The notes under the pieces are model-generated. The model had not been told where the DNA came from. It did not search any database and saw only the letters and a program-made list of their open reading frames with translations. Of a stretch of 64,000 nt of DNA, positions 19,584 to 49,405 are shown piece by piece. The stretch lies in IMG/VR virus record IMGVR_UViG_3300028833_000061, positions 137,402 through 201,401 of that record, one strand, 5' to 3'. Within the stretch, counting starts at the first letter, position 1. Every line of letters begins with the position of its first letter. Made by a program: the position numbers and the translations under genes. This DNA is from a virus. Lineage: Duplodnaviria; Caudoviricetes.

Positions 19584-20879
19584 TTACTTTCCGAGGTGAG
19601 CAACAAGCAGCTTGGAAGCGGCGGCGATCTTGCTCATCATAGAGGCTCTCTTGTATATGAGAGATGCCTGCTTGCTGACGGGCTTCTTGGAGATCTTCTT
19701 GGCCGCAACCTTCTTCGCGGAGGCCTTCTTGGCAGATGCCTTCTTTGCAGAAGCCTCCTTCTCACCGTCGTCAGCCTCGGGCTCCGCCTCTGGCTCCTCT
19801 CCGGATGGCTCAGCTGAAGTATCTACAGCGGCCTCGTCGCCGCCCTCGGCTGCCTCGTCTCCGACGCCGACATCCAGGCCTAGCTCCTCCGCCGCCTCGG
19901 GCTCCTCGGCCGCGAGCTCCTCGACGATTTCTGCGAGATCCTCCTCGGTGAGAGCTCCAGACTCAAGCTGTGACATCAGGACCTGTGCAACCGCATCCTC
20001 TGGAAGCATCTCGCCGTCATCGGCTACGTCAGCTTCCGCGGCAACGTCTGCTGGAACGTCCTCGGCCGCTGGCTCCTCTGGAACTGCCTCCGGCTCCTGG
20101 GCTGCCATTGCCGCAATGGCGGCATCTGCTTCGTTAGCGCCTAGATCCTGTGCCTGCTTGATGCGAACATACTGAGCGGCTGCGCGCTGTCCTGCTACAT
20201 ATTCCTGAGCTGCACGCTGACCAGCTGCATATTCCTCTGCTGCCTTCTCCTGCCCTGAGATGAAGTTGAAGACATCCTCTGCCTGCTTGGCTCCGGCCTG
20301 CTTGGCCATAACCTTCTCCGCAAGATCTGCTCCCTCCTTTTCTGCGAGCATGGCGCACGCGAGTTTGGCGAGAATATCTGTTGTAAGCTCAAGATTCAGT
20401 TCGGGAGCGCCAGCAGACTTCGTATCCGGCTTGGACTCGACCTTCTTCTCCTTCTTCTGTTCTACCGCGGGAGCGGCGGCCTGCTTCGTCTGAGCGGCCT
20501 GCTTCGTCTGAGCAGTCTGCTGTCCGTGGATCAGAGAAAGGATGTCGTTGACAAGAGTCTTCTGCGCAGACGCCTCCTTGGCATTTGCATCGGCTGTCTC
20601 GAGCGGCTTCTCCTCTGGGTTGACGATTGACTCGTCGGACTCGAACAGGTCGCCGGCCGTGATAGGACGATCGTCGCCCTTGCCTTCTGTTGAACGAGTT
20701 GACTCTGGACCCATCGATCCGTCATTCACCTCGGGATCCTCCTTCGGCAGAGTAACGTCCTTGTCGTTCTCCGCACCGGGCATGTTGTCGGGATCCTCTC
20801 CCGAAATTTCAGCGAGCTTTGCCTGTGCACGCTTCGTCATAGCCTGCACTTCCTTGAGCATCTGAGAGTATGTTGCCAT
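19584..20879 (-). CDS. Capsid scaffolding protein, putative
   Basis: Acidic, Ala-rich, low complexity, between the protease and MCP, with more than a dozen KxA motifs; start MATYSQ at 20879. Confidence 0.65.
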   Translation of the reverse strand: MATYSQMLKEVQAMTKRAQAKLAEISGEDPDNMPGAENDKDVTLPKEDPEVNDGSMGPESTRSTEGKGDDRPITAGDLFESDESIVNPEEKPLETADANAKEASAQKTLVNDILSLIHGQQTAQTKQAAQTKQAAAPAVEQKKEKKVESKPDTKSAGAPELNLELTTDILAKLACAMLAEKEGADLAEKVMAKQAGAKQAEDVFNFISGQEKAAEEYAAGQRAAQEYVAGQRAAAQYVRIKQAQDLGANEADAAIAAMAAQEPEAVPEEPAAEDVPADVAAEADVADDGEMLPEDAVAQVLMSQLESGALTEEDLAEIVEELAAEEPEAAEELGLDVGVGDEAAEGGDEAAVDTSAEPSGEEPEAEPEADDGEKEASAKKASAKKASAKKVAAKKISKKPVSKQASLIYKRASMMSKIAAASKLLVAHLGK

Positions 20880-20884
20880 GTTTT

Positions 20885-22435
20885 TTATTCCTTCTGCATG
20901 TCTTGAAGCGCTCCTAGCGCCGTCATGCATTCTGCTATTTTAGATGTTTTTTGGTTCGAAGTTTCGCCACATCGGCTGGTTATGACTGCGTCTATAGCAG
21001 CTAGTTTGTAAGCAGCGTATTTCTCCGCTAATTTCTTAGTTACATAACCATTTAAAATCTTTAATGAAGAATTGTCAACAACAAAATTAGGTTTAGTTCC
21101 TTTTATTGTCGCGGACACTACAGAATCCTCTAGCGAGTCAATGCAAGACGCTTCCTTCAGCTCCTCTTTCAACTCAAAAAGATTCTGTCTCGAGATCGGA
21201 AAAGAGCATCCAAGTGGCCACGCGTCAAAATTTAGATCGTTGCACAGTTTCTGCAAACAGGACGTATCTTTAGCCTCTTTAAGTACTTCAGCAACTTTCT
21301 GCGAAACACCGTTTAAATAAGGCTTAACTGTGTTGAAGTCATCTCCCATCGCATACTTGAAGAAAGACGTCGAATCCATGACAACGCCAGCATCGCCTAG
21401 AACCCTGAAGGCTGCTCCAGGATCAAGTTCGCGAAGCTTGTCTATTGTTGAATCTTTCAAAGGATGTGATGCTATCTTGCACAGCTGTACAAGAAACTTG
21501 TCGCGCGCCGAATCTGCAGAGGCTGTCTTTGTTATAAATCCAACATACTTGTCGTGCATGTCTATAAGCTGATTGGCATACGCTAGTTTCCTGAGTCCAG
21601 AAGGAGACGTGATCGCCAGCCTGTCTGACGCCTCTACACCATAGTATTCAGCAAGCTTCACGGAATCGAACGGAAGCGTGTACGACGCCTCCTTCTCTTC
21701 TTTGTCGTCGTCTTTGTCCTTCTCTTTATTTTCCTCGTCCTTGTTGTCCTTGTCCTCGTCTTCCTCGTCTGGCATTACTTTCATAAGATCCCACGCGATT
21801 CTATCTGCTGGCTTACCTACAAACGAGATATCGAAGAACTTAGGTTCGTCGTTGAACGTAAATATATGCCTTCCGTCCTCCATCATTTCTCCAAGATGGT
21901 CACGGACATGCTCGCACTCAAGCTCGTCTCCCGCGTGCTTTCTCTTCGCGCCGCAAATAGAGCAACGATCATGGTCTACCATGCAAGCCATCGAAAAGCA
22001 GATCTCGCCATCGCGCTCTAGACGCTCAAGCTCTGGAGCTGCCTTCTCTCTGTCAGCATGTATGAACAGCTCTACACGATCCATCATATCGTTAAAAGCA
22101 GAAGCAATTATATCGCCTATGGACTTCTTGGGGTCCTTATTCCTGTGATGCCTGAATACGTGTCCGAACTCTACAAAAGTCGGATGATACTTCTTGCACG
22201 CCTCACGAGTAAAACCGTCACCGTTCCTGTTTGCTCTGTATGCCTCTGTGTCACCAAGTGCTACAACGTGAATACCTACATGATTCTTGTCTGGCTTCAG
22301 TTCATCGTAGCTCTTACCAAAAATAGTCTCTGTCTCTTTCTTTTCAGCTGTCTTTACAGAATTGCCGGAGTCGACAATCTCCATGCCGACTCCTATGTCA
22401 GGATCGAACTGCGATGACTGTATCAGCTTTATCAT
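20885..22435 (-). CDS. Prohead maturation protease (HK97/assemblin clan) with a Zn-finger and a long C-terminal extension
   Basis: NRNGDGF, VFRHH (His), FSMAC (Ser), CSICG..CEH, FFDISFVGKPAD. Confidence 0.8.
   Translation of the reverse strand: MIKLIQSSQFDPDIGVGMEIVDSGNSVKTAEKKETETIFGKSYDELKPDKNHVGIHVVALGDTEAYRANRNGDGFTREACKKYHPTFVEFGHVFRHHRNKDPKKSIGDIIASAFNDMMDRVELFIHADREKAAPELERLERDGEICFSMACMVDHDRCSICGAKRKHAGDELECEHVRDHLGEMMEDGRHIFTFNDEPKFFDISFVGKPADRIAWDLMKVMPDEEDEDKDNKDEENKEKDKDDDKEEKEASYTLPFDSVKLAEYYGVEASDRLAITSPSGLRKLAYANQLIDMHDKYVGFITKTASADSARDKFLVQLCKIASHPLKDSTIDKLRELDPGAAFRVLGDAGVVMDSTSFFKYAMGDDFNTVKPYLNGVSQKVAEVLKEAKDTSCLQKLCNDLNFDAWPLGCSFPISRQNLFELKEELKEASCIDSLEDSVVSATIKGTKPNFVVDNSSLKILNGYVTKKLAEKYAAYKLAAIDAVITSRCGETSNQKTSKIAECMTALGALQDMQKE
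21049..21078 (-). promoter_or_regulatory. Possible internal promoter for the scaffold-capsid operon
   Basis: Perfect TTGACA with an AT-rich, non-consensus -10, in an AT-rich patch at the 3' end of the protease gene. Confidence 0.3.
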
Positions 22436-30004: not shown

Positions 30005-31876
30005 CTAATACGTGTAACCACCTTTTCTTCTTACCCCAGGGTCAAAATAATTTCCAAATTCAACACCCTTGGCCAATCCAGGTATAGGATTGGTACTATG
30101 TATGTCTGACGTAGATCCATGCTGTGCGTCGTCTATCAGTCTCTGTTTCAAATACGTAGTTCCAAGCCTGGACACCCAATCTCTATCGGTACCGGTTGAT
30201 TTTACTATCGACTGCATGATTGGCATAACATCTATAGGACGATCGTTGGCCACGATGTCGTCTCCTACTCCAAACTTATCCAGGTCTTTAGCGACCCGAC
30301 GCGTTATCTTTGTGCCTATAGTGTAATGCAGCGCAGGCTGCTCAAGATACTTGCCTACAAGAGACGATGCCTTGCCACGCACAGAATCAGGTCTCGGCGA
30401 ATATCCACGAGACCATGTAGTATACGTAGTGACATCTCCTGGCAGAAGCTTCCCCTCAGAATCCTCGTTCTCTATCTCGACGTGATTTACAAGTGCTCTT
30501 GCGATAGATTCAACGTTACGCCTATGCGCCGAATATCCAGAGTCGCGAATGGCCTGTGTGAATCTTTCTGCGAAATACCTGCGTCCTTCGCCTATACCCT
30601 TGTACTTCACGACGTCCTTAGGATCTAGCACTCCATCGGAAATCTGATCTCCTGCCTCAAGCTCATCTCCATTCTTAACAAGAAGAGAATATCCAGGCGC
30701 AACATAATGCTGTTCGCCGCCTATTACAACGTACTCTCCGCCCTGCGGTGCCTTCTCTATGGAATCTACAGTTCCATCCTTTTTCGCAACTACAGCTCTA
30801 TCAGGATAATTTTCAGGCACTGTTGTGAGTGCCTTTATCATATTAAAGCCCTGGTATTTGCCGGCGCCGCTAGTAAGGCGACCTGAATGCTTTGTTGACA
30901 GACCAGCCTGTGCAATTCTCTCACTTATGGCGGAAGCCGCAGTAACACCGAGATTATAGCCAATCTCAGGAAACTTTCCGTTCTCTCGTATTCCTGCACA
31001 GTGTGCGCAAATTCCGCTGCTTGCCTGACACGTGACAGGTGACCTCACGGCTATGTCTTTTACACCGTCCTTTACAAAATCCTGTATGGTTGCCTTCGTG
31101 ATAACTTCGCCTGCCTTATGGCCACCGGCATCATATGCAAGTACCGATCCTATGTTGTCTTTGTCGGTAGCAGACACCGGCATGCCATACTTTGATCCGC
31201 AATCATCCTCTGTCACAACCTGATCTATGGCAAGAGAAGCCAACAGCTTTCCAAGTTCTCCTCCCTTTCGTGTCGCCTGTTTACCTGCGACAACACCGTT
31301 TCTGGCACCGTAAGAGCCAGCCCATAACTCAGCAGGAGAAAGCCCGTCAGCGTATGAATGCCTAATAAACATAGGTATCGGCTTGCCCTTGGTGTCGGTA
31401 TACACACCAGGAGAAGCAAGTAACGCTCCTAACTGAGCCTTGTTTCCTCTCGCCTTGGATTTTACCTGCATCGCGAAAGGGTTGTCATTCTTCAGTGCAG
31501 AATCATATGCACTGTCAAACATAAGACCAGTCATATCTGTATATAACTTGTCCAGAAGAGACCTCTTCTCGTCTTTTGATAACGACTTATCAGCAAGAAT
31601 CCTATTCTCCTGCTCGTCCATCATCTTGTAGACGGCAGACCTGTCAAACGGCGGAAGAGTATCTGACAGCCTAAGCGTTACTCCGCTTTCTACGGCTCCT
31701 CTGTTTCCAAGCTTAAGAAGCTTGTACGATATATCTTTGTATTTGTCCGGTTGCTCGTTTGCTATTTTCGACAGCAACTCGCTGATCCCGTCGGCACCCA
31801 TGACCCTTGTATAGTCACGGTACTCCGGCGGGATCGCATCATTTACGAATATCTGACCTACTGTCGTGCTTAGCAT
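30005..31876 (-). CDS. rpoC: DNA-directed RNA polymerase beta' subunit, C-terminal part
   Basis: STTVGQ, KARGNKAQL, bridge helix SYADGLS...YGARNG...GGELGKLL, VTEDDCG, Zn site RSPVTC..GICAHC, trigger loop GVTAASAISERIAQAGLSTKH. Confidence 0.95.
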   Translation of the reverse strand: MLSTTVGQIFVNDAIPPEYRDYTRVMGADGISELLSKIANEQPDKYKDISYKLLKLGNRGAVESGVTLRLSDTLPPFDRSAVYKMMDEQENRILADKSLSKDEKRSLLDKLYTDMTGLMFDSAYDSALKNDNPFAMQVKSKARGNKAQLGALLASPGVYTDTKGKPIPMFIRHSYADGLSPAELWAGSYGARNGVVAGKQATRKGGELGKLLASLAIDQVVTEDDCGSKYGMPVSATDKDNIGSVLAYDAGGHKAGEVITKATIQDFVKDGVKDIAVRSPVTCQASSGICAHCAGIRENGKFPEIGYNLGVTAASAISERIAQAGLSTKHSGRLTSGAGKYQGFNMIKALTTVPENYPDRAVVAKKDGTVDSIEKAPQGGEYVVIGGEQHYVAPGYSLLVKNGDELEAGDQISDGVLDPKDVVKYKGIGEGRRYFAERFTQAIRDSGYSAHRRNVESIARALVNHVEIENEDSEGKLLPGDVTTYTTWSRGYSPRPDSVRGKASSLVGKYLEQPALHYTIGTKITRRVAKDLDKFGVGDDIVANDRPIDVMPIMQSIVKSTGTDRDWVSRLGTTYLKQRLIDDAQHGSTSDIHSTNPIPGLAKGVEFGNYFDPGVRRKGGYTY

Positions 31877-32553
31877 TACCTAGCCGACCTGGCAACCGCT
31901 TTGTTGTAGAACGCGGCAACCTTGGCGGTAGGAACACCGCGCTGTACGCATCTGACGACGAATCCCTGTGTAAACGGATCCAGTCTTGCAAACATATCTT
32001 CAGCGCGTTTCTGTCTCTCTGCGGCGGATGCCTGCTTTTGCAGATTGCTTGCTGCAACGGCTGCTACGTACCTAGGATCGACGCCTCGTTCCTCGCAACG
32101 CTTCACAAAACCAGCCTGGTATGCCCTTGTCTCTGTGCTGTTCATTTCTGATGTCTTCTCCTGCTCGTCATTCGAAGAGTCTTCGTTTTTCTTCTTTTTC
32201 TTGTTCTCCTCGTCTGCCACATGCTTATCATAGTCCTTGGCGTACCCTCTAAGGCGCTTATCCTCGAGATAGTTGACAAGCTTCGCCCATCCGGCACCAT
32301 TTAGCATTCCAGCTCCACCGCCAGCAAGGCCACCAACAACAGTTCCAGCAGGACCACCAGCCGACCCAATCATCGCCCCAAGAACACCGCCAAGCGCGCC
32401 ATCCACTCCCATATTCCACTTATAGTTACTTGCACGACCGTTAAGATATCTCTCATAATCTGATGCGTCGTCGAACTCGGGCAAATTCAAGAGTCTTCTG
32501 GCGGCTGCATACTCCTCTGGTGTCAGTCTCTTAGCTTTCTTCTGCATGTGCAT
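31876..32553 (-). CDS. Glycine-zipper protein with two GF motifs and KxA sites
   Basis: MQKKAK; GALGGVLGAMIGSAGGPAG..; AYQAGFVKRCEERGVDP..KQAS; FTQGFVVRCVQRGV. Confidence 0.6.
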   Translation of the reverse strand: MHMQKKAKRLTPEEYAAARRLLNLPEFDDASDYERYLNGRASNYKWNMGVDGALGGVLGAMIGSAGGPAGTVVGGLAGGGAGMLNGAGWAKLVNYLEDKRLRGYAKDYDKHVADEENKKKKKNEDSSNDEQEKTSEMNSTETRAYQAGFVKRCEERGVDPRYVAAVAASNLQKQASAAERQKRAEDMFARLDPFTQGFVVRCVQRGVPTAKVAAFYNKAVARSAR

Positions 32554-32557
32554 TCTC

Positions 32558-33103
32558 CTAGCTTAAAGCGGACATGAGCATGTTCTTCAGATCCTTGACC
32601 TCATCAGCCAAAGCCTGATTTCCGTTGTCAGGAGCAGGCTGTGCCTGAGGCTGTGCGGGTGCTCCGCCGTTTATCTTCTGAGCAAGCTTAGATATCTTGT
32701 CAAACGCAGCAAGAAGCTGTGAGAATGTCAGCTTGATGTATGGCTCACCTTCTGGAGACATCTCCTCTCCGCCAGCAGGCGGAGGTTGCATGCCTGCTGC
32801 AGCTGGGTCTCCTGCCGGAGGTGCAGGAGGCATACCTCCCTGAGGAGGCATTCCGCCACCCATCATTGACGGATCTATTGGCATTCCAGTGCTTGGATCA
32901 ATCGGCATGCCCGTGCTTGGATCGACTGGCATACCCGTGGCCGGGTCAATCGGCATACCTGTGGCCGGGTCAATCGGCATTCCAGTTGCAGGATCTACCT
33001 GTTGTCCGCCACCCTGTGCGGCTGGATCTCCTCCTGCCGGAACAAAAGCCTGCTTCTTGAAGCCGGCTTTAACCTTAGCCAGCAAATCTTTGTCTAGAGC
33101 CAT
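32558..33103 (-). CDS. Pro/Gly/Met-rich repeat protein with a KAGFKKQA leader
   Basis: MALDKDLLAKVKAGFKKQA followed by DP[AS]TGMP[IV] repeats. Confidence 0.65.
   Translation of the reverse strand: MALDKDLLAKVKAGFKKQAFVPAGGDPAAQGGGQQVDPATGMPIDPATGMPIDPATGMPVDPSTGMPIDPSTGMPIDPSMMGGGMPPQGGMPPAPPAGDPAAAGMQPPPAGGEEMSPEGEPYIKLTFSQLLAAFDKISKLAQKINGGAPAQPQAQPAPDNGNQALADEVKDLKNMLMSALS
32871..32998 (-). repeat. Tandem 24-bp / 8-aa repeat DP[AS]TGMP[IV], five copies plus a partial
   Basis: Directly visible; the copies differ mostly at synonymous positions. Confidence 0.9.
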
Positions 33104-33112
33104 TTGTTGTCC

Positions 33113-33685
33113 TTACTTTTTGTATCTTATCACGTTAGACCGCTTCCTGCCGTCCTTGCTTAGTATCAGAAAAATAAATTCAGACGCAGCTGAACACTCG
33201 TTATTGTTCCAACCGCCGTATCCGTCCTTTATATTCTTCCAGCTCCTGGACGTCCTTGACGTTGAAATCCAATCCATCTTACCACATTTATAGATATTAT
33301 CAAACCTGTATCCGAAAACTGCCAAGGCTGACGCGTCGTTATCCGCAAGGCCCCATTCCTTAAGTGTTCTGCGAAATCTCGCTCTGGCCCACGCGTAAGA
33401 GAACTTACTGCCTACTGTGACTCTAAGATTTCGTATCTGCACTCCGGCGTGTTCTACCGCCTTCGAGCCGTCTACTCCGCCATACACCCATTTAAGCTTA
33501 GAAAAATCAACCTCGTCGCCCGACTTTTTGTTGTCATTTGCCGTGTCCGGGACAACAAACAGGTCCGCGTCTGGCTGCGTGGCATTTGACGTTTCTGGAT
33601 CAACGCCAAGCTTCTTCAGGATCCTGTTTATGAATCTCTGAAGTTCTTTCTTGATTTTATCTTTTAACTTGCTCATGGTGCTCAT
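33113..33685 (-). CDS. Hypothetical Trp-rich protein (likely start ATG 33676)
   Basis: VDFSKLKWVYGG...GKMDWISTSRTSR; has its own promoter. Confidence 0.6.
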   Translation of the reverse strand: MSTMSKLKDKIKKELQRFINRILKKLGVDPETSNATQPDADLFVVPDTANDNKKSGDEVDFSKLKWVYGGVDGSKAVEHAGVQIRNLRVTVGSKFSYAWARARFRRTLKEWGLADNDASALAVFGYRFDNIYKCGKMDWISTSRTSRSWKNIKDGYGGWNNNECSAASEFIFLILSKDGRKRSNVIRYKK

Positions 33686-33714
33686 ATAGTAACAGTTAAA
33701 AAAAGATTTAACAA
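33686..33714 (-). promoter_or_regulatory. Putative sigma70-type promoter
   Basis: TTGTTA-N17-TACTAT with a TG extension. Confidence 0.5.
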
Positions 33715-33721
33715 TATAAAC

Positions 33722-34159
33722 CTAAGCGACCATACGCCATCCAGGAAGACCATACTTGTCCGTCGCATCCTTTAGCACGTTCGCAACGAGATACAACTTC
33801 CACCTCTTCCACTGCCACCATCTGAATTTCTTTCTTGCTATAAGCCTTGTATTGTCCTTGAGCTGTTTATTCACAAGATGAAACTCATCCAACGTGCCAC
33901 CCTTGTAATACTTCAAATCGTGTATTGCAACAGCCTCCAGATCGTCTCGCAACAGACTAGACAATATATACCTTATATACGCAGGAAACCTGTCCGGTCC
34001 GACGCCGTTATACTGCTCTCTAAGAACTTCCTCAGGATAAGAATCAAAGATGTCCGCCCCACTCAGTCCGAGTGCTTTTGCAGATTTCACAAGATCCATT
34101 ATGTCTGGAAGCGGGCGGAGAGACTCCGCCTCTACGGTCGTTAGCTCAGAATTACTCAT
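33722..34159 (-). CDS. Phospholipase A2-like / DUF1353-like HD protein
   Basis: YNGVGP...AVAIHDLKYYKGG..., basic and Trp-rich C-terminus. Confidence 0.5.
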   Translation of the reverse strand: MSNSELTTVEAESLRPLPDIMDLVKSAKALGLSGADIFDSYPEEVLREQYNGVGPDRFPAYIRYILSSLLRDDLEAVAIHDLKYYKGGTLDEFHLVNKQLKDNTRLIARKKFRWWQWKRWKLYLVANVLKDATDKYGLPGWRMVA

Positions 34160-34165
34160 GCTGAA

Positions 34166-34194
34166 AAAGTATCACAGTAGCCAAAAAGAAGCAA
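34166..34194 (-). promoter_or_regulatory. Putative sigma70-type promoter, leaderless
   Basis: TTGCTT-N17-TACTTT with a TG extension; ATG 6 nt after the -10; no SD. Confidence 0.5.
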
Positions 34195-34215
34195 CAGCTT
34201 GCATTATAATTGAAA

Positions 34216-34246
34216 CAGAACCTGGGCCGTAAAAGCCCAGGTTCTG
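34216..34246 (-). terminator. Terminator-like hairpin
   Basis: Perfect 12-bp stem CAGAACCTGGGC/GCCCAGGTTCTG. Confidence 0.7.
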
Positions 34247-34264
34247 CATCCGTACACCTACATA

Positions 34265-35455
34265 CTACGGTCTAGTCGATTCCTCGCCAAGCCCTATAAG
34301 AAGGCGAAGCTCCTCAGGTGTTAGCTTTCTTTTCTTGTTGCGAGAGCCTGTATCAACACCGTCTATCCCGCGAAGGAGCAAATAACCCTGTGGAGATATC
34401 GAGCCCAGTGGAGCTGCGTTACCAGACGCAGACGTCTGCGGCTTACCCGCTGTCTCCTGAAGCTTCTTATACTGCTCGATTACCTGTCTTGCTTTCTCTT
34501 CTTCACGCAGTCTCTGAAGATCCGCCTCATCCTGTTCCTTAGCAAGCTGCTCCGCCTTTGCTTTCGATGCGAACGACTTGTCTGCCTCAGAGCCGGCCCT
34601 GAGCTTCTGAGACTGCTCCTGTGCGGCAAGTATTTGTCTGAGCAGCGGCGACATTGTTATGCCTGCTATTTCATCAGATCCGTTACCTGCCGTAGAGCCC
34701 CACAAAGGAACGTCAACTGTCTCTTTTACAATGCGACTTGGTTTAAAACCATCAGGAAATAGCTCACGCTGCTTAGCATTGGCTGCCTCTATAAGCTCGT
34801 TGTCATGCTTTATTTTGTTCGCCTTTTGAAGCCACTCCGCATACAGTTTCTTGTTCATCGCCGCTTCTCGTTTGGCGAGATTCCGATTCAGCTCAATTGC
34901 TCGATTATTAGCTTCTCTTACATCTTGGCCCATCAAATATCTCGTTGGATGAAGCAATCCACCATATGTATTTTGTCTTACCTCTTCCTCCGACATCACA
35001 GGTGCTCTCTTAAGCTTTATAGGCTTAAAAGGCGGTGGATAGCTAATCAGTTCCTGATCTTTGACTTTTTCGCCTCTGACAGGATATGAAATGTTTACAG
35101 AAGCATTATTAAAACCGTTAGTTATGGAGGCTAAACCACCTGGAAGTGTAACAAATCTATCTGTAGCAAGCGGACCGGCAGCATCTGGAGGAAGTATGTG
35201 GTTGATCATTGCTGGATCAGACAGTCTGAATGTCACTGGCTCGGTAGACGACAGATCGTAAAAGCCGCTCTTAAGCTTGTCCTCCTCTTCGCCAGGAGCG
35301 AGACGTACTCCTCCTCCAAGAGGACCTGTTGGCCTGTCAAGACTGCTAGGAGATGTGTCCTCAGGTTTAAGCGGAAGGCCACCGGGCAGTACAACCATGT
35401 CGGCTGCCAACTTCCTCATCGCAGACACGAAGCCATTCTTGAAATTATTCGTCAT
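34265..35455 (-). CDS. Leader-bearing putative capsid cargo protein (396 aa)
   Basis: MTNNFKNGFVSAMRKLAA leader; SD CAGGAG. Confidence 0.65.
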   Translation of the reverse strand: MTNNFKNGFVSAMRKLAADMVVLPGGLPLKPEDTSPSSLDRPTGPLGGGVRLAPGEEEDKLKSGFYDLSSTEPVTFRLSDPAMINHILPPDAAGPLATDRFVTLPGGLASITNGFNNASVNISYPVRGEKVKDQELISYPPPFKPIKLKRAPVMSEEEVRQNTYGGLLHPTRYLMGQDVREANNRAIELNRNLAKREAAMNKKLYAEWLQKANKIKHDNELIEAANAKQRELFPDGFKPSRIVKETVDVPLWGSTAGNGSDEIAGITMSPLLRQILAAQEQSQKLRAGSEADKSFASKAKAEQLAKEQDEADLQRLREEEKARQVIEQYKKLQETAGKPQTSASGNAAPLGSISPQGYLLLRGIDGVDTGSRNKKRKLTPEELRLLIGLGEESTRP

Positions 35456-35553
35456 GTTTACTCCTGTAGATGGATTAAATCTGTTTAAAGAATACCATAG
35501 CTAAAAAAAAAGCAAAAGACTATTTATTATAGATGAGGAATTATGGAGGTGTT

Positions 35554-36792
35554 CTACCATTCTTTGTCTATATTCTTCTCGAGCCACCCGCCACGCTGAT
35601 GCCTGTTACCGTGCACCTTGTGCACTATATTCGTTCCGTTTATGTGATAGCCATTATAACCGAGATGGTCTCCCTCTGCAGGAATTACTCGAATACCAAT
35701 CCTCGTGTTGTTCGATATCACGATCTTCTTGCCGTTCTTAAGCCTAAGTACGATCTCGTCGTGGCCATCTGTCTTATCTGGAGTAAACGACTCGACCTCT
35801 CCTTCGCCAGACTCGTAGGTCTCACTCTTAGAGGATGCCTTCTTCTCAACGACCTTGTCGATGTTTCCTGAGCTGAAGCCCATGGACCCATACTTCTTGT
35901 TATCGAATTCAACGACGAACGACTTCCAGCCGTGCTTGTTTTCAGGGTCTATGCGCACGATCGTGCCTATATGGCCCTTCTGTTGGCATCTGATGTTGTC
36001 TGAAACCTTTACACGATCCCCGACTGAGAACGACTTCTCCTTTTCCTTCAGCTCATCCTCGGTAGGAAACTTTGAGTTCGGAAACAGCTTCTTTAGGTCG
36101 AGCGAAGAGGCCTTCTTCTCTGCCACGTTGTATACGAGCTTCCTGTAGCCTTTCGCGTTCTTCGGAGTGGCGTCCTCGAACCCTGCTGACAGGGCGGCCC
36201 GTATCGACGGTTCGTTGTCTGCGAACGCCTCCCACAATAGCCTTTTGACATTCTCCTTCCTGGCTTTCCTGACGGCCGCCTCCACCATGATCTTGGCTAG
36301 ACCGTTTCCACGGGCCTCCGAAGAAACGGCAATTATATTGTGAGGAGGAAGTTTCCTGCCTCTCTTGTCCTTGCGCGAGTAAAACTCCTGGAACCCTACG
36401 GGATCGCCTTTTCCGTCAACTACGACCTGCCTGTCGAACAGTATGTCGTCTGGTACCTTGCGAAGGAAGTCAGGATGTCTTGGAACAAGGTTTGCCCTGT
36501 CGTCGAAGTCAAGCTTGTCGAACACCTTGAGTGTGTCCTCGTACGTTGGATCCTTCTTGAGGCTATACGATTCGGCCTTCTTGCTCCAATCCTCGTACGG
36601 ATCAGCTCCGTGTTCCAGCTCCCATTTTATCTGAGCTTCCCTAGCATTCCTTACTGCAGGATTGCCGTTGTTGCTTATGCCAGACGCACCGTCCGTTACG
36701 ATGAAGAAGTTCAGGCCTTGCTTCTTTGCAAGCCTGTTCACGGCGTCAACCAGCTTACGTGCCTTAATCAGCTTTTTCTCTTCCGGTGTCAT
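35554..36792 (-). CDS. Four-domain polyprotein: small domain / GNAT acetyltransferase / SH3-KOW-like / DUF3465-like OB fold
   Basis: GNAT IAVSSEARGNGLAK..DNEPSIRAALSAGF; FSVGDRVKV..GTIV..FVVEFD; GEVE..HDEIVLRLKNGKKIVISNN..GDHL..VH..H..GWL. The domains are separated by KKA. Confidence 0.75.
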   Translation of the reverse strand: MTPEEKKLIKARKLVDAVNRLAKKQGLNFFIVTDGASGISNNGNPAVRNAREAQIKWELEHGADPYEDWSKKAESYSLKKDPTYEDTLKVFDKLDFDDRANLVPRHPDFLRKVPDDILFDRQVVVDGKGDPVGFQEFYSRKDKRGRKLPPHNIIAVSSEARGNGLAKIMVEAAVRKARKENVKRLLWEAFADNEPSIRAALSAGFEDATPKNAKGYRKLVYNVAEKKASSLDLKKLFPNSKFPTEDELKEKEKSFSVGDRVKVSDNIRCQQKGHIGTIVRIDPENKHGWKSFVVEFDNKKYGSMGFSSGNIDKVVEKKASSKSETYESGEGEVESFTPDKTDGHDEIVLRLKNGKKIVISNNTRIGIRVIPAEGDHLGYNGYHINGTNIVHKVHGNRHQRGGWLEKNIDKEW

Positions 36793-37097
36793 TAAAATCT
36801 AAACTGAAAGCCGGTAACAGGTGCTCCGCTTCCATGTCTTATGTTAAGCGCGTTCACCAAAGGTTTGAAAACCCACTGATTCCTCTGCAGCCAGTTAGGC
36901 TTTTTATAGTGCTCAAGTCCGGGAAGATCTGTTTCTTTCGGCGAATCAGACAAAGAAGCAGCAGAAGACACTGCCTGTAGTCCAGCTGTAGCTGGTGCGT
37001 GTCCTCCCATCCATACAGACGCGAAAGGCAGTGACAAATCTGGCTTCTGCTCTTCTGCCAGCTTGTCCATGAATCCGCGTTTAAAATTTTCCGTCAT
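36792..37097 (-). CDS. Leader-bearing putative cargo protein (101 aa)
   Basis: MTENFKRGFMDKLA leader. Confidence 0.6.
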   Translation of the reverse strand: MTENFKRGFMDKLAEEQKPDLSLPFASVWMGGHAPATAGLQAVSSAASLSDSPKETDLPGLEHYKKPNWLQRNQWVFKPLVNALNIRHGSGAPVTGFQFRF

Positions 37098-37160
37098 TTT
37101 TAAAACCTTTATGCTACTATATCACATAAAGAGCAATTTTAACACACAAAGGGCCTGCAG

Positions 37161-38048
37161 ATGACAAACAACTTCAAACGCGGTTTTACAGACGCTATCA
37201 GCACAATGCAGAAACAGGCCGCACTATCGTGGCGCCCATGGAGGTGGGGCAAAAACAACGCAGAAACGGGAAACAAGTACAACTGGGGAGATTTATGGAC
37301 TGGGCTTGGGGCCGCCGGTGCCCAGACGATGAAAGCAATGTCTCGTGCCGGACACGATCTTGCTAGAGGCGCAAGTTCTCTTCTAGGGCAAAGTGACTGG
37401 GTTGATAAAATAAACAAATCCGAAAAATATACAGATAATTTCTGGAACGAACATACTCCTGGCGGACAGGACTCTGTAAACACATTTGAATACGACCCGG
37501 GTGCGAGACAGGCACTAAGAGCAACTGAATTGATAGGTGCTACTCTTCCTGGTGCGGTCGCAGGGCCATATGGTTTGCTTGCCACGACTGCTGCAACAAA
37601 GGCGGGAACAAGACCGGACACTGGAGTGAAGAGCATTTCTTGGGATGAAAACGGAAGACCTGTTCCTGAGCTAGTTAATGCGGATCCGGCGTACAAGGCC
37701 TGGGATAATGCAACCGGCTTCATGCCATATACGTGGGTTGGAAACCTCACAGGGGAGGTTAACAACGAGATGGCAGACTCAAACTCAGACAAATACTCGG
37801 CTGGCAATGTCGTTGGAGCCGGAGCAACCGGGCTTACCATGGGTGCCATCGATAGAGCGCTTCGATACGCTGGAAGAAAATGGCCAGCCTTAACCGCTGC
37901 CGGAGCAACTCTTGCAGGAGCAGGTACTGGAGCCTGGAGAGCAAAGCCATTCTTGCGCGAATGGAATGAAAATCTAGACACCCTACGTGGAGACGCAGAA
38001 ACAGCGCGCCCCGACGTACTTCTGCACAGAACAAACCCTCAAAGGTAA
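37161..38048 (+). CDS. Leader-bearing Gly/Ala-rich putative cargo protein (only supported + strand gene)
   Basis: MTNNFKRGFTDAISTMQKQAA leader; several Gly/Ala hydrophobic stretches. Confidence 0.7.
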   Translation: MTNNFKRGFTDAISTMQKQAALSWRPWRWGKNNAETGNKYNWGDLWTGLGAAGAQTMKAMSRAGHDLARGASSLLGQSDWVDKINKSEKYTDNFWNEHTPGGQDSVNTFEYDPGARQALRATELIGATLPGAVAGPYGLLATTAATKAGTRPDTGVKSISWDENGRPVPELVNADPAYKAWDNATGFMPYTWVGNLTGEVNNEMADSNSDKYSAGNVVGAGATGLTMGAIDRALRYAGRKWPALTAAGATLAGAGTGAWRAKPFLREWNENLDTLRGDAETARPDVLLHRTNPQR

Positions 38049-38077
38049 AAAAAGCCGACGATTTTTACGTCGCCGGC
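38047..38077 (-). terminator. Terminator between convergent genes
   Basis: Bulged GCCGACG/CGTCG(CC)GGC hairpin next to an A7 run. Confidence 0.5.
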
Positions 38078-38096
38078 TCTGTAGTTGTGTAGGCCG

Positions 38097-38546
38097 CTAA
38101 GTTTGCGTGGTTGTTTGAACCTTTTTTATCTTTTCAACGTATGGATCCGTAGATTTCTTTAGCCAGCCCTGAGGACCACCGTTGTGTATTCGAATAAGCA
38201 CTTCGATGGTTGCGGGTTTTCCTGTGCGACGAGTATATGCCGAACCGTACCGAGTAAGATACGCTCTTGCAACCTCATAGGACTTAGCCCTGTCCTTCAT
38301 GTCGTTCAGGGTATATGAAAGGCGGGAGTCGGTCAAGTAGGGCTGCTGGATCTGAAGGCAACCGACAGATAGCTTTCCGTTGGTGTCGGTGACGACCACG
38401 TCGGTCCTGCCGTTGCTTTCAACAATAGCAACTGCATCGAGAAACGACGTCCAGTCGGCGTCGGTAGTCGGAATAGTCGAAAGGTCGATTCCGAAGGAGT
38501 TGATGACCATGCAGAACGCCACGACCATGGCTGCGAGTTTTTTCAT
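38097..38546 (-). CDS. Secreted lysozyme-fold muramidase (destabilase/i-type-like)
   Basis: Signal peptide MKKLAAMVVAFCMVINSFG; catalytic VESNG, GCLQI, RIHNGGPQG. Confidence 0.8.
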   Translation of the reverse strand: MKKLAAMVVAFCMVINSFGIDLSTIPTTDADWTSFLDAVAIVESNGRTDVVVTDTNGKLSVGCLQIQQPYLTDSRLSYTLNDMKDRAKSYEVARAYLTRYGSAYTRRTGKPATIEVLIRIHNGGPQGWLKKSTDPYVEKIKKVQTTTQT

Positions 38547-38669
38547 TTGTTTTTTTTTTGTTAAAAAGAATCACGGGCATCAGGAATTGATGTCCGCTTC
38601 TTTTTACCAGGTATCCAACCCGGCATTATATTATAACGCTCAAAAGTCTATTTTTATTCTTACGCAGCA

Positions 38670-40301
38670 CTACAGACCAAACTTCTTCAAGGCCAACGAT
38701 ACAGAATCTCTAGTGTCTCTTCCTGGCCATCCCTGTGCCTTGTCTATGTCCTTAAGCCAGTTGGGATTGGCCCTGTAATAAGGTTCAAAATAGTCTGAAT
38801 TCAATCTACTTAGATTATCTATCCATCCATACGTAGGATTGTACACCATCTCATGTCCCAAGACCGTGGTTGGCGTAAAGACAGAAGGACCGACCTCGTC
38901 GAAGAATCTAAGCATCTCGCTACGAAGCTTCTGAGCTTTCGCGTCATCGACAGCAGTCGTACTACCGGCATCGGTTGGTCTAAGTCCACCAGTCTTTCCT
39001 ATGTCAGAAACCGCTGTATCTACGTAATTTGTCCCTAGTGGCGTCAACGCATTTGCGTCAAAATCCCACAGGCCTCCGGACATACCAAAGTCAGCTGGCC
39101 TTGAAGAGTCTCCAAACCCGCCATTTACATAAGCGGATATGGAATTCCTGAACATAGGATATTTTCCTGTCTGCTGTACTACTGCTCTTAAAACAGCCTC
39201 ATCCAGAGCATTATCAGCGGCCCACTGCCTGTCCTCGTCTGACATTCCGCTGTCACCAGCCCACGCCCCCATCATAGGAGCCCAGCTGTAAGCCATGTTT
39301 CCTATAGACGGATCCATGCTAAAACTGGTGTTCTCGTCTGTAGGAAGCATGGATGCGGCCAACGACGTGAACCTACTCTGACGTGGTGCATATCCTACGC
39401 CGTCTCTGGCATACGTCTCTCTGCCGACAGGCGTCTTCTCTAGCGCAGATGCTTTAGATGCATTGAAAAACGGCGTTCCGGCGTAATCAGCCTCTTGCAT
39501 AGGAGCGCCTTCGCCTCCTGGAGACATGAACGGAACATTGAACCTTAGAGGACGATAAGCCGTTGCCGGCTTGCCTTTGGTGCTATGATTGTTCTTCTCT
39601 GCAGCGGCCGCCGCGTCTCTGTTAACCTTTGCGTAGTCCTTCGGTGTCTGTGCACCCATCATCTCATCAAGGACCGCGATGTTGTCGTCATTTCTCTTTG
39701 CCATAGAATACGCGGCACCACCGTATTTCTGCATTCTACGGCGTTTCTTGTTCCTGCTTCTCCTATCTAGAAACAGATACGTGAGAAGAGCTGTTGTGGC
39801 AAGACCTCCCCAAGTCCACGGACTCTTCCAGTCGACAGACCAGCCACCGTTCGTCTGCTGAGGCGTTGTCGTATTTACAGGATTAGTATTAGGAACATCT
39901 GGAACACCTGCATCAGTACCAGCAGAATCAGCAAGAAGGCTCTCGTCCACTGTAGACTGAGATGGCTGCGGAGGTGCATCGACCTGTGGAGCGGGCGCTG
40001 GCGCTGTTTCTGGTGGATTTACGCTTGCTGTTGGAGCCGCTCCAGGTCTGAACAGTCCTCCGGTCTCTCTCTTTGCCGTGGTTCCAACGGCAGAAGCGGC
40101 CTGCTGTGGCGTGTAGGCCTGACCTTTTGCTCCAGTTGCCTTCCATGCCCTCTGGGCAGCGTCCTGAACAATGTCCTTTCCTACAAGATTGAACATCCTC
40201 TTCTCCCCGTCATTATAGAACAACCACGGCGGAACTGAGTCAGTAGCATAGTCCTTCGTTAGAATGCGTTCGGCTGTCGTCTTCGGTCTTTGAATGGCCA
40301 T
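38670..40301 (-). CDS. Hypothetical single-TM protein (543 aa)
   Basis: WTWGGLATTALLTYLFL followed by a basic RRSRNKKRRR stretch; Pro-rich linker. Confidence 0.6.
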   Translation of the reverse strand: MAIQRPKTTAERILTKDYATDSVPPWLFYNDGEKRMFNLVGKDIVQDAAQRAWKATGAKGQAYTPQQAASAVGTTAKRETGGLFRPGAAPTASVNPPETAPAPAPQVDAPPQPSQSTVDESLLADSAGTDAGVPDVPNTNPVNTTTPQQTNGGWSVDWKSPWTWGGLATTALLTYLFLDRRSRNKKRRRMQKYGGAAYSMAKRNDDNIAVLDEMMGAQTPKDYAKVNRDAAAAAEKNNHSTKGKPATAYRPLRFNVPFMSPGGEGAPMQEADYAGTPFFNASKASALEKTPVGRETYARDGVGYAPRQSRFTSLAASMLPTDENTSFSMDPSIGNMAYSWAPMMGAWAGDSGMSDEDRQWAADNALDEAVLRAVVQQTGKYPMFRNSISAYVNGGFGDSSRPADFGMSGGLWDFDANALTPLGTNYVDTAVSDIGKTGGLRPTDAGSTTAVDDAKAQKLRSEMLRFFDEVGPSVFTPTTVLGHEMVYNPTYGWIDNLSRLNSDYFEPYYRANPNWLKDIDKAQGWPGRDTRDSVSLALKKFGL

Positions 40302-40310
40302 AGTAGGCTC

Positions 40311-43300
40311 CTACATGTCTAAAATTTGAACTGGATCGTTCATTCCTATGAGACCTTGTCTGTAGGCCTCCTTGGCATCTTTCGCTGTTCTGAATACCTT
40401 GGGCCTCTTCCTCGTCGCAGGCCTTGTAAGATTGTACAGTCCCATCACCTGCTCGTTCTCAGGCTTGTATCTTGGAGACGACAAATCTGTAAGCGAAATT
40501 AGATTCTTGGATGGAAGCATCTTCTCGTATGCTTCCCTGACAGCCTTGTCAGACGACGGCACGTGAATGTTAACCTGGTCTCCGTCGAAATCTCCAGCCA
40601 TTGGCGATGCGCTGAACGGGCTTATTCGTATCGACTTTCCGTCAACAAGCGACGGTTTGTATGCCATGATGTTGAACTTGTGCCATGTCGGAGCCCTGTC
40701 CATCAAAACAGGCCTGTTTGCCATCTCCTCCTGAAGCGCATTAAGCGCTGTGTCGTCCCTGCCTCTTATCATATTTACAGCCTGAACGGGACTGTACCCG
40801 CGTCTAACCAACCGACGCTGTACATATGGCTTATACATCTCCCACGCAATATCCTTCGGTATGCCGATCTGGTCCATATCCAGGTTTTCATCTGGAGTTA
40901 TGACCGCTCGTCCTACATTGTCGAGGTTCTTGGCTATGATCTTGGCCTGGAACATAGAAAATTTCGGAGAACCTGTTCCTATAACCTGCCTTATGGCTCC
41001 TTTGATGTTCTTGGACTGTCCCTCTGGCGTTATTGGGTCTCCAAGTCCAAACACAGCGGCTACAGACTTGTACAGGTTCAGCCTCTCGTCCGCTAGAGAT
41101 TCGTCTGCAACAGATCCCTTCAGCGCAGAATAATTCTCGGCGTTCTCTATGACGTCCTTGTATAGATCGTTAAGATCCGATACTAGTTGCGTATCGCCAA
41201 GTTTAGACACGGGCCTGAACTTCGGAGGTATGACAGGAACCTTTGTTATCATCCAATCCTTGGGCTCAAGGCCCTGCTCCTGCATCGATTTAAGATATCC
41301 AAGTACCTTTACCGCGTTGTCTCTTCCGGCGCCTCTCTTGTTCTGGATGTCATTTCTGGCTGCCGATATTGCCTTGTCGACGTCAATGGCCTCAAGCGCT
41401 GACTTTATCGCCTCTCCGCCAGTCTTTCCATTCAACTTCTCTGTGCCTGACAAAATCTTCTCAAGCTGATCTACTGTAAGACCAAGTACACGCCTTACAG
41501 GCTCCTCCATTATAGGATTCGGTATAGGCTCTGGAAGCTTTATAGCTGACCACCTGAGACCGTCTGGACCGCCTGTCTTCCCGAGGTCAAACAAACCGCC
41601 GTCTACAGGCTTCAGATCTGAATTCATCATCTTGGAATTCTTTATAATTCTATTGCCTGCCATCTCGTCGATATCTTTGTCCGTAAGAGGAAGTATAGAC
41701 GTCTTGCTTCCCTTCTCTACGACATTTATTCCTCCGGCCTTCAGCGTCTCCAGGAATTTGTTGTATATGAAAGGAACACCAGGTTCAGGTACTGGAAGCC
41801 CTAATCTAAGTTTGTTCCAGTACTCCTCGTTCTTCGTGCCGCGGATCGTCATCATATCCTTTAGATTCTCTGTCGCGCCGTGTGACAAAAGAGCCGTCCT
41901 GTCGAGACCCGAGACCCTTTTGGCTCCTGAAAATCCGCCTCTTGCCGGTGCTTCGTCCTGAGTATATGCAGCATCGTTTCCTCTGGCAGACAGCTTTTTC
42001 TCTGCGAGATGGTGGAACGCCTGAATGTATACGTAGCCATCACCGATGTTGTGCAGCGTCTTTCCGGTACTTGGGTCAAATATGTCCGAAGAATCCTTGA
42101 CTCCGGCAGCATCAAGCTGTGCCTTCGCCCAAGTCGCCCATCCCTCCTCAGGAGGAAGCTGTGGGATGCGTACCTGCTTTCCGGTCTTCTTGGCAACCTT
42201 GCCAAGAGCTATCTCGATAAGCTGATTCGGGGCAACTCGTGACAGGAATCCCATAGGATTCATTAGAATCTCGTAAGGCTCGTTCGTAACCGCGTCACGA
42301 GGCATCTCGTCGTCTGGACGGACTTCTCCTATTGTACCCTTGAGAGCGTCATGAGGAGACAGCTTGTCTGCTACCTGCTTTGGCGGCGTAGTCACGACAT
42401 TTACCTTGGCGCCGCTTGGCGTCATTACAGCATCGACAACAGTGCCAGGCCAGTCGTGCTCCCACACCTCTGATCTATCTGTAAACGAATTACGCAGCGT
42501 CTTTGACAGCTTGCCGAGCATTGCATCTTTCGCAGACAGAAGCTTCGGCCCGATAGATACGATTATAGGATCGCCTTTGTGAAGTACGGTTCCAGGCTTG
42601 GCTATTCCATTGTCGTCTATGTTTTCAAGCTGCTGCTTCGTAAAAGCCTGCGGGAATGCCGCCATGTACTTCTTCTTGTCTATAAGCACGCCGTTCTTCT
42701 TGTCCGTGTCAAATCCGAACAGCTGTTCGGTAGCCAGCTTCTTGGCCGCAGTCTCGGATATGACTATCGCGTCCTCGAAGTTGCCTGACTTGCCTGACGG
42801 CATAATTGCTACCTTCAGGTTGACGCCCGTATTGAACGATCCTGTTTTCTTGTCCGTGAAGTTGGAGTGGGCTATCAAATCGCCCTTTCTAACGCTCTGC
42901 CCGACCTCAACGGCAGGAAACGTCGAGAACGACGACATTCTATTATGTGGATAGTACTTTACAAGATCGTACGTCCTCTTCTTGCCATCTGCACCCTTTA
43001 CGACGACACTGTCGTCGTTCACAGCAGTCACGACTCCGTCTTCATTGGCTGTGACGGAGCCTATTCTCTTTCCATAATGCTCAAGAAAAGTCTCTTTTCC
43101 ATCAGGCATCAAAGACGCGACTAGAGGAACCTCTCCCTTTGCCATCGGAAGATACTGCTCCCAGAACTTTGTAGCATAGAACTGTCTTGCGCCCTGGACG
43201 CCTGTCGGCATTGGATTGAAGTTGGTTGTCGTAGTAGACATGGACGAGAAATCGGGCACCATGTACGAAACCTCGTTCCTTGCCACCTTGGTAGGAACGT

Positions 43301-48136: not shown

Positions 48137-48442
48137 TTACTCAGCTCCTTCCGTCTGTTCCTCGATCTCTTCCAGCTCTGCCATCGCCTGATCATACGCA
48201 GAGTTGCTCTTTAGAATAGTGTCATACGGTATTCCTAGCCACATAGACAGGCCTACGTCGTCAACAAGATACCACTTTCCAGCCGGGTGCTTAAGCGGAG
48301 GAACAACAACAGTAGATCCTGGAGATACGACAAGGATACGCTCACCGTACACTACAGGATTGGCGTATTCAGGCTGTCCCTTTCCTCTGAAAATGCAGCA
48401 GCCTGAACACAGAACGGCCAAAGCTGTGAGCAAGACTCTCAT
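48137..48442 (-). CDS. Lipoprotein (possible o-spanin)
   Basis: MRVLLTALAVLCSGC lipobox-like signal; Pro-containing body. Confidence 0.55.
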   Translation of the reverse strand: MRVLLTALAVLCSGCCIFRGKGQPEYANPVVYGERILVVSPGSTVVVPPLKHPAGKWYLVDDVGLSMWLGIPYDTILKSNSAYDQAMAELEEIEEQTEGAE

Positions 48443-49176: not shown

Positions 49177-49405
49177 CTGTACACCCGTTGTACTTCTCGT
49201 ACAGCTCGCGTCTTTCCGCAGCAAGATAGTTTGCATCTGTAACGCGACCTTCCCGTAACGCCTGTGCAAGCTGCTTTTCCTTTCTGTCTATCGCTGCCTT
49301 CAGCTTTCTACACTTGCTAGTACGATAACGGAAGAAACTGTAGACCATGTCTACAATCTTCGTAAAAGCGCCTGCGATTGAAAAGACGGAAAAAGAAAAA
49401 GCCAT
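49166..49405 (-). CDS. Small protein with a hydrophobic N-terminus and coiled coil
   Basis: MAFSFSVFSIAGAF..KLKAAIDRKEKQLAQAL; overlaps the metacaspase start. Confidence 0.5.
   Translation of the reverse strand: MAFSFSVFSIAGAFTKIVDMVYSFFRYRTSKCRKLKAAIDRKEKQLAQALREGRVTDANYLAAERRELYEKYNGCTDGQ

Follow-up and report, generated by a model that had tools for sequence, protein, structure and literature searches.

A four-module protein of an uncultured phage and the case for K-x-A joints as sites of its prohead protease

The DNA analyzed here (the window) is the terminal 64 kb of a 201,401-bp virus record of an uncultured phage in IMG/VR (IMGVR_UViG_3300028833_000061), with almost every gene on the minus strand. 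An 8-kb stretch that separates two RNA polymerase genes contains the open reading frame (ORF) 35554-36792(-), which encodes a protein of 412 amino acids (aa). An earlier note on this DNA, made from the letters alone, had described the ORF as a polyprotein of four domains with KKA tripeptides at the domain boundaries, and its extent and the positions of the three tripeptides were as given there. We think it fairly probable that the ORF encodes a modular cargo polyprotein, made up of four independently folding units of different origin. Its parts are, in the order of the protein:

36583..36792, minus strand: module A (aa 1-70), a small alpha-beta-beta-alpha domain of unassigned function, with D-W-S as its last residues
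36574..36582, minus strand: junction 1, K-K-A at aa 71-73 with E as the next residue; similarity to relatives stops at this point, and the predicted local distance difference test score (pLDDT) is low
36118..36573, minus strand: module B (aa 74-225), a predicted GNAT N-acetyltransferase, RimJ/RimL-like by Pfam Acetyltransf_3
36109..36117, minus strand: junction 2, (E)-K-K-A-(S-S) (aa 226-228); left edge of a 276-nt indel relative to the related locus L003
35845..36108, minus strand: module C (aa 229-316), a KOW/SH3/Tudor-like beta barrel
35836..35844, minus strand: junction 3, (E)-K-K-A-(S-S) (aa 317-319); right edge of the same 276-nt indel
35554..35835, minus strand: module D (aa 320-412 and the stop codon), DUF3465-like

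The domain calls of the earlier note were GNAT, SH3/KOW-like, and a DUF3465-like OB fold for the last three modules. The first of these was borne out by Pfam: module B matched PF00583 (E 1.7e-10, 41.6 bits against a cut-off of 20.7, aa 123-205) and PF13302 (E 1.3e-7, 32.8 bits against a cut-off of 25.4, in the region of aa 123-206), and its acetyl-CoA pyrophosphate-binding loop (R/Q-x-x-G-x-G/A) reads R-G-N-G-L-A at aa 161-166. The scores above threshold and the loop argue for membership of the GNAT superfamily. The second call found support in an AlphaFold2 (AF2) model, in which module C had a pLDDT of 85-94 for aa 245-315. Its best structural match was KOW6-7 of DSIF (Z 9.4, root-mean-square deviation [rmsd] 1.5 Å over 58 residues), with further matches to Spt5 (Z 8.5) and NusG (Z 8.2), while the match to Pfam SH3_13 reached only E 0.047. 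Module C is therefore predicted to be a five-stranded SH3-type barrel by fold, which does not imply family membership. The third call fell just under the Pfam threshold, as module D scored 24.9 bits against PF11948 (DUF3465; E 2.1e-5, aa 319-407), 0.1 below the cut-off of 25.0; the copy of module D in the relative P0010 scored 25.9 bits, above the cut-off.

Module A gave a confident AF2 unit at aa 1-66 (pLDDT 84-92, scored over aa 10-60). It had no match in Pfam or PHROG, and a search of the ESM Atlas gave no usable feature match, with template modelling scores of about 0.5 to unrelated proteins only; the VIA structural search of the polyprotein model was dominated by module C. As a stand-alone phage gene of 64-92 aa (P0078-P0092), module A is widespread, with a conserved core V-T-D-G-A-S...N-P-A-V-R-N-A-R. 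The AF2 model is good for modules A and C only, as its alignment was partly out of register (the GNAT rows were misaligned), and it is uninformative on the GNAT part, the DUF3465 part with its proposed OB fold, and junction 2. Its confidence falls at junctions 1 and 3, with a pLDDT below 50 for aa 70-78 and a drop from aa 317.

KKA occurs exactly three times in the protein, each time between modules, where its own content of Lys and Ala would predict 0.40 occurrences (P = 0.008 for at least three). All three joints fit the pattern K-x-A-(S/E/A), being K-K-A-E, K-K-A-S, and K-K-A-S. Only two of the three have a Glu before KKA, and relatives can do without it, with D-W-S, Q-L-N, or S-P-V in front of KKA. 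Judged by their residues, the joints do not follow the rule of cleavage C-terminal to Glu (L/I-x-E or S/A/G-x-E), and K-x-A appears to be the invariant part. Across the genome, KKA was counted 39 times against 19.9 expected, KQA 30 times against 9.3, and E-K-K-A-S 4 times against 0.09. An ordinary multidomain protein could carry three KKA by chance, given that Lys makes up 12% of its residues and that tripeptides do recur by chance. We find this hardly credible, in view of the count, the placement of all three between domains, and the recurrence of the joint in dozens of relatives; a chance origin is contradicted by the breakpoint, architecture, and junction tests that follow.

A homologue search of 5.8 billion protein clusters returned 122 relatives (60 about as long as the query, 33 shorter, and 29 longer), and architectures were counted on the first 94 proteins analyzed, using 19 reference modules. 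These 94 proteins showed 44 distinct architectures, built from about 19 module types, with more among the 29 longer proteins. The earlier note had named full-length cellular homologues without the linkers as evidence that would speak against its reading. None of the 122 relatives has the order A-B-C-D in full, and the top query coverage was 60% (at 76-93% identity). What the relatives share is single modules at high identity, in other combinations, of which the following are examples:

query: A-B-C-D
P0001: A-B-D
P0002: A-C-D
P0018: A-D-other
P0006: D-HExxH unit-B
P0005: transglutaminase-like unit-B-C
P0010: A-HD-D-I

Module A was also found internally or at the C-terminus of other polyproteins, and module D joined to many other partners. 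Between adjacent modules of the 94 proteins there is typically KKA alone, with the variants KKG, KNA, KQA, KEA, KDA, KKV, and KKS, so that related phages do carry different module combinations joined by KKA or K-x-A, as had been anticipated.

The positions at which homology stops coincide with these joints. Of the 447 internal homology breakpoints in high-scoring segment pairs with 70% identity or more, 160 lay within 5 aa of a KKA, where 19.2 were expected, and the control tripeptides KKL, KAK, and GKK were at or below expectation; the same test on all segment pairs was noisy (18% versus 3.9% expected). Similarly, where at least 45 residues follow one of the modules A-D, a K-x-A stands within the first 14 of them in 50 of 92 cases, compared with 4 of 53 for modules at the end of a protein (Fisher p = 4e-9). 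With the GNAT counted by itself, the figures were 14/14 when non-terminal and 3/10 when terminal, and the three exceptions bear short remnants of a lost next module. Searching each segment separately also yielded the stand-alone homologues that the earlier note expected, and they terminate where KKA sits. Stand-alone genes for module A (64-92 aa) end at or just after D-W-S, one of the stand-alone forms being an 86-aa gene of Fusobacterium phage JD-Fnp1. The GNAT stands alone in P0063 and P0064 and the barrel of module C in P0077, while module C is N-terminal in P0067 and P0069. Several relatives terminate exactly at K-x-A (e.g., ...Q-K-A).

Other cassettes of these chains include a recurrent module of 150 aa with the sequence H-E-L-A-H-E (HExxH), which always ends in Q-L-N-K-K-A (P0003, P0004, P0012, P0020, P0029, and P0031), two transglutaminase/papain-like modules, an HD domain, a Peptidase_M91-like unit, and a helicase.

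A search of viral contigs for related loci found no relative, and locus contexts were taken from contigs that encode homologous proteins. Two of these, L003 (172 kb) and L005 (80 kb), show a synteny with the window that spans both polymerase genes, and carry A-B-D and A-K-D-I, respectively, at the position of the polyprotein. The window gene and the DNA of L003 are about 90% identical throughout, except for a single 276-nt gap in L003, which is exactly module C and ends within two GAGAAGAAGGC repeats. The indel is direct evidence of module gain or loss at the linker repeat, and agrees with the proposal of the earlier note that microhomology in the linkers could shuffle the modules. The likeness of two junctions as DNA, also reported there, is present as well: the two E-K-K-A-S-S sites (GAGAAGAAGGCCTCTTC and GAGAAGAAGGCATCCTC) are identical at 15 of 17 positions. 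More generally, the joint DNA is AAGAAGGCN at 15 of 16 sites, which fits the idea that microhomology serves module exchange.

Such a repeat could also do without a protease. The protein may be an uncleaved polyvalent multidomain protein, in which the four domains work jointly as a single chain and KKA (AAGAAGGC) is a flexible basic linker and a recombination joint for domain shuffling. The near-constant DNA of the joint, in which AAG is richer than elsewhere, is what this explanation would predict, as is a whole-module indel bounded by a repeat; the polyprotein ORF also lacks a leader, and some polyvalent proteins are delivered uncut (PMC5512222). Since AAGAAGGCN recurs with so little change, the codon test at KKA does not separate selection at the protein level from selection at the DNA level. 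The tolerance of KNA, KQA, KEA, KDA, and KKG at the joint, and the use of all four Ala codons, indicate on the other hand that an amino-acid pattern is kept while the DNA changes. We consider an uncleaved protein unlikely, on these grounds and on those given by the head proteins and by a second lineage, both discussed below.

The K-x-A-(S/E/A) pattern also clusters in products of the genes for head morphogenesis, which occupy about 17-30 kb of the window; three of these genes are of particular relevance:

20885..22435, minus strand: prohead (capsid-maturation) protease, with a gp21/assemblin-fold N-domain and a long, K-x-A-rich C-terminal extension
19584..20930, minus strand: scaffold-like acidic protein, rich in K-x-A-(S/A/E) (K-x-A 18 versus 8.2 expected)
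17649..18614, minus strand: homologue of the major capsid protein (MCP), with K-T-A at aa 28-30 (BLASTP E 5e-24 to MCP gp226 of Salmonella phage Arash)

The protease had no Pfam match even at E 10 and no sequence match in the PDB, and matched PHROG weakly (phrog_18299, "head maturation protease", E 7.6e-6). Its AF2 core had a pLDDT above 90, and the best structural match was T4 gp21 (Z 10.0, rmsd 2.6 Å, 132 residues), followed by herpesvirus proteases at Z 6-8.7 (VZV Z 8.7, PRV Z 8.3); the fold call rests on VIA-align, as Foldseek alone gave weak matches (E of at least 0.028). Residues H97 and S148 are invariant in 38 homologues, and the protease alignment also shows an invariant K28, the Lys of a K-x-A at aa 28-30. 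The family comprises 2,818 representative clusters at E ≤ 1e-3 (clusters at 50% identity).

We ranked all 264 predicted proteins by their excess of K-x-A over each protein's own composition. The protease ranked first in the genome, with 17 K-x-A versus 4.2 expected (p = 2e-6), and the others of the top six were a 348-aa protein elsewhere in the genome, ORF 19584-20930, and proteins of 774, 133, and 416 aa. Five of these six lie within the head-gene block, at 19-30 kb of the window; the 774-aa head protein had no tblastn match among cultured phages. The top six and two further ORFs of the head block (24144-25001 and 16995-17528) together have 83 K-x-A sites, and at 55 of them E, S, or A comes next. 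The excess is a property of the protease family: taken over 107 homologues with lengths of 380-700 aa, the poorly conserved C-terminal extension holds 667 K-x-A versus 202 expected (3.3-fold), and 90% of the homologues are more than 2-fold enriched. Ser after K-x-A is 2.6-fold enriched in this set, while 13 control patterns (K-x-S, R-x-A, A-x-K, S-x-E, L-x-E, and others) gave ratios of 0.6-1.24.

Arash shares this distribution. Its polymerase is 31% and its protease domain 39% identical to those of this phage, its MCP gp226 has K-E-A at aa 27-29, in the same alignment column as K-T-A of the window's capsid protein, and K-x-A is in excess in gp220 (10 versus 3.0), gp223 (8 versus 3.0), and the protease gp222 (7 versus 3.2). 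A scaffold role for the product of 19584-20930 would follow from its composition and its position between the protease and capsid genes. The cleavage sites of T4, phiKZ, and SPN3US have just such a signature, a short motif found at the capsid N-terminus, in the scaffold, and in the tail of the protease (PMC9026906, PMC10052503), and the marking by K-x-A resembles it, with different residues. Proteins of this kind are not shuffled cassettes, which argues against a mere linker in the polyprotein. K-K-A is probably one form of a K-x-A-(S/E/A) recognition signal of the prohead protease of this lineage.

About a third of the best protease homologues (P0096, P0098, P0099, and others) are 830-900 aa long, with the match to the protease domain in two stretches, and these probably carry inteins. 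The locus L004 contains a 986-aa gene with intein and LAGLIDADG domains.

A second lineage offers a comparison in which the module stays and the joint differs. In AT-rich relatives (P0040-P0059 and several longer proteins), module A is part of multi-enzyme chains and is not flanked by K-x-A. On its C-terminal side, x-E-(S/A/T/G/V) occurs within about 8 residues in every fused case (I-E-S, N-E-A, T-E-S, M-E-S), and x-E-(A/S)-C occurs on its N-terminal side, although part of the latter may belong to module A itself. Cutting C-terminal to Glu is the site type of the T4, phiKZ, and SPN3US proteases (PMC9026906, PMC10052503). In the cultured phage JD-Fnp1, which belongs to the AT-rich group, a match to Peptidase_S77 (the T4 gp21 family; 25.4 bits against a cut-off of 27) lies 6 kb from the module-A gene. 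It seems, therefore, that the module is constant and the joint varies with the protease of the phage, a supportive rather than decisive observation, with the protease checked in one genome per lineage. Such switching is predicted by a protease site, and not by a structural linker.

The enzyme that reads the joints need not be the prohead protease, and the genome encodes two further candidates:

genome 115893-116867 (L009:1408-2382), minus strand: Peptidase_S8 subtilase (E 1e-43 to 4e-45), with a Trp-rich amphipathic C-terminal tail; adjoins a sigma-factor-like gene
48439-49269 of the window, minus strand: Peptidase_C14 (caspase domain) protein (E 2e-12), the third protease of the genome

Kexin-type subtilases and metacaspases cut after basic residues. 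The S8 enzyme (at dibasic K-K), the C14 enzyme (with Lys as P1), or a host protease could therefore cut the joints, in the cytoplasm or after injection, and in the relative L008 an S8 gene lies directly upstream of the polyprotein P0005. The conservation of the joints does not follow a dibasic rule, as only the first Lys and the Ala are conserved, with K, Q, L, T, E, N, and others at the middle position. In addition, the motif tracks the prohead-protease family and the capsid N-terminus, and the S8 gene of this genome lies about 57 kb from the polyprotein gene, beside the sigma-like gene. Cleavage by one of these other enzymes is, in our estimation, quite unlikely.

As the best reading, and one that we consider reasonably probable from the sequences compared, the K-x-A joints would be cut by the phage's gp21-fold prohead protease. 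The chain would be a late product of the cargo island that the virion RNA polymerase genes enclose. It would enter the procapsid, where the maturation protease would cut it at the three joints, with the bond after Ala as the most likely point. The 46.6-kDa chain would thereby be divided into products of about 8.2, 17.6, 10.3, and 10.5 kDa, which would remain in the head and reach the host together with the DNA. The joint DNA would double as microhomology for the gain, loss, and exchange of modules. Herpesvirus assemblins cut Ala|Ser, with maturation and release sites of the form x-x-Ala|Ser. A scissile bond Ala|Ser/Glu/Ala is favored, because Lys and Ala are fixed, several relatives of the polyprotein end exactly in K-x-A, and the herpesvirus proteases, which share the fold, cut Ala|Ser.

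Several observations weigh against cleavage by the prohead protease. The polyprotein ORF begins directly with module A, without an N-terminal capsid-targeting leader, and eight architectures without a leader likewise start with module A, so that the route into the procapsid is left unexplained. The AAGAAGGC joint is nearly invariant as DNA (Lys codons AAG 30:2, versus 291:70 elsewhere), and conservation at the DNA level could contribute to its recurrence. A K-N-A at aa 211 sits within the GNAT fold, which means that a cut cannot be defined from sequence alone, and some junctions have no K-x-A, such as K-K-S between D and I and A-K-P between A and K. The S8 and C14 enzymes are also to be counted here. 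Finally, the counts over relatives are not phylogenetically independent, though their effect sizes are large.

A broader proposal, which we put forward more tentatively, is that an uncharacterized family of gp21-fold proteases (about 2,800 clusters, Arash included) reads a K-x-A code in place of the classical cut after Glu, and that its phages use this code as a universal joint. Small genes put behind AAGAAGGC within a cargo gene would become packaged, released, and injected effectors, microhomology would drive their combinatorial exchange and so yield a natural cassette library for host take-over and anti-defense, and leaderless chains would ride in via module A or a coupled leader protein.

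No published description of a K-x-A-joined phage polyprotein was found in the library papers searched on phage polyproteins and prohead-protease motifs. The internal proteins IPI-III and Alt of T4 (PMC9026906) come close: they are non-structural proteins that are loaded into the procapsid and trimmed at a short motif by a gp21-fold protease, as is proposed here, a portable N-terminal leader allows unrelated proteins to be packaged, and the protein sets vary between related phages. T4 cuts after Glu, however, whereas the signal here is K-x-A, and it removes one short leader from single proteins, while the three internal sites here would part four unrelated domains. The T4 internal proteins also have their own leader, which ORF 35554-36792 lacks. 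The proteases of phiKZ (gp175), 201phi2-1, and SPN3US (gp245) (PMC10052503, PMC9026906) come from giant phages that have a virion RNA polymerase and carry many proteins inside the head. They cut each substrate several times, the protease has a C-terminal part that it cleaves itself, and propeptides contain repeated copies of the motif. This motif is S/A/G-x-E or A-x-E. Where cuts have been reported, they remove and shred propeptides rather than release separate folded enzymes, and no cassette shuffling at the sites is described. With the T4 and phiKZ-type systems, this phage shares a gp21/assemblin-fold protease in the head block, and joints that carry the motif of its own head proteins.

Polyvalent proteins, defined by at least two unrelated domains on a single polypeptide (Iyer et al. 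2017, PMC5512222), resemble the four unrelated modules described here in that they combine unrelated effector-type domains, GNAT among them, with extreme mosaicism among relatives. Their delivery with the DNA has been predicted and processing suggested. This processing was ascribed to internal peptidase domains, and no common junction peptide read by a capsid protease was described; the polyprotein here is also small and, unlike polyvalent proteins, has no MuF, peptidase, or ART domain. Herpesvirus assemblin shares the protease fold, and would share the small P1 residue if the cut here is K-x-A|S. Its only known substrates are itself and the scaffold, no cargo polyproteins are known for it, and no sequence similarity is detectable. 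For module B and its possible target, a plausible model by description is the GNAT Rac of LUZ19-type phages, which, as cited in PMC7824862, acetylates the alpha subunit of RNA polymerase in host take-over; Rac is an early cytoplasmic protein and not part of a polyprotein. Compared with all these systems, the one proposed here would differ in a K-x-A code in place of x-x-Glu, in sites between folded, unrelated enzymes, and in a site that is also a point of cassette exchange.

If the joints are cut, K-x-A followed by S, E, or A would be a readable code in many uncultured large phages, from which head-loaded proteins and their cut sites could be told by sequence, and hundreds of "hypothetical" multidomain genes could be read as sets of separate injected proteins, each open to testing. 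The gp21/assemblin-fold proteases would then have a second class of specificity, nearer to the herpesvirus Ala|Ser than to the Glu rule of phages. Cutting at the joints would also explain a fast renewal of the injected arsenal, because the cutting site doubles as a recombination joint. As a practical use, a three-residue joint and a leader would allow compact loading of several foreign proteins into a phage head, which the T4 capsid-targeting sequence already allows for single proteins.

The surroundings of the polyprotein gene bear on how such a chain might be packaged:

31876..40311, minus strand: variable cargo island between virion-type RNA polymerase genes, which holds the polyprotein and three leader-bearing ORFs
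34265-35455; 36792-37097; 37161-38048 (+ strand): the leader-bearing ORFs of the island
36792..37097, minus strand: the ORF of 101 aa directly upstream, with the leader M-T-E-N-F-K-R-G-F-M-D-K-L-A; its stop codon overlaps the ATG of the polyprotein (TAATG)
40311-44741: RNA polymerase beta fused to the N-part of beta-prime, with RNA polymerase domains of the multisubunit type
30005-31876: C-part of RNA polymerase beta-prime, with RNA polymerase domains of the multisubunit type

The homologous RNA polymerase of Arash is the most abundant virion protein by spectra (PMC10585845), which makes it plausible that the neighboring island is head cargo. The island of the window has the same flanks as those of the two syntenic loci (L003:3976-9126 and L005:5933-14702), and its leader and cargo genes vary in number and kind among the three phages, hence our term variable cargo island.

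The earlier note had the polyprotein gene coupled to a leader-bearing ORF. The TAATG overlap is present, but the coupling itself amounts to this 1-nt overlap only. In each of the three syntenic loci, the gene directly upstream bears a leader; it overlaps its neighbor in two of them and is 22 nt away in L003, and it is not one and the same gene throughout. A 547-aa leader protein upstream in L003 was considered as a homologue of the 543-aa ORF of the window, which was rejected on comparison. L005 has an extra gene of 185 aa, made up of the leader of the 101-aa ORF and a transglutaminase-like module, which overlaps the module-A gene by ATGA; in P0007, P0066, and P0250, that leader and module are fused via KKA to C-D, D, or a helicase. 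In the relatives, the leader fused ahead of modules has the form M-T-x-x-F-x-x-G-F..K-x-A. The occurrence as a separate gene in one case and as a fusion in the others suggests that modules move freely between separate and fused states. As a guess, a leaderless chain could enter the procapsid by coupling to, or piggy-backing on, a leader protein.

Leader-like features recur at two further positions of the island. A 181-aa protein (32558-33103, minus strand) has tandem G-M-P-I-D-P-(A/S)-T repeats and a leader-like start, K-A-G-F-K-K-Q-A; it is conserved in L003 and L005, with a different number of repeats. Just upstream of the gene for the C-part of beta-prime, at the position of the 225-aa ORF of the window (31876-32553, minus strand), L005:14043-14702 and L003:8485-9126 encode products with internal leader-like copies (x-x-G-F-V/I-x-x-C-x-x-R-G-V) separated by K-x-A, an arrangement that resembles a chain of leaders.

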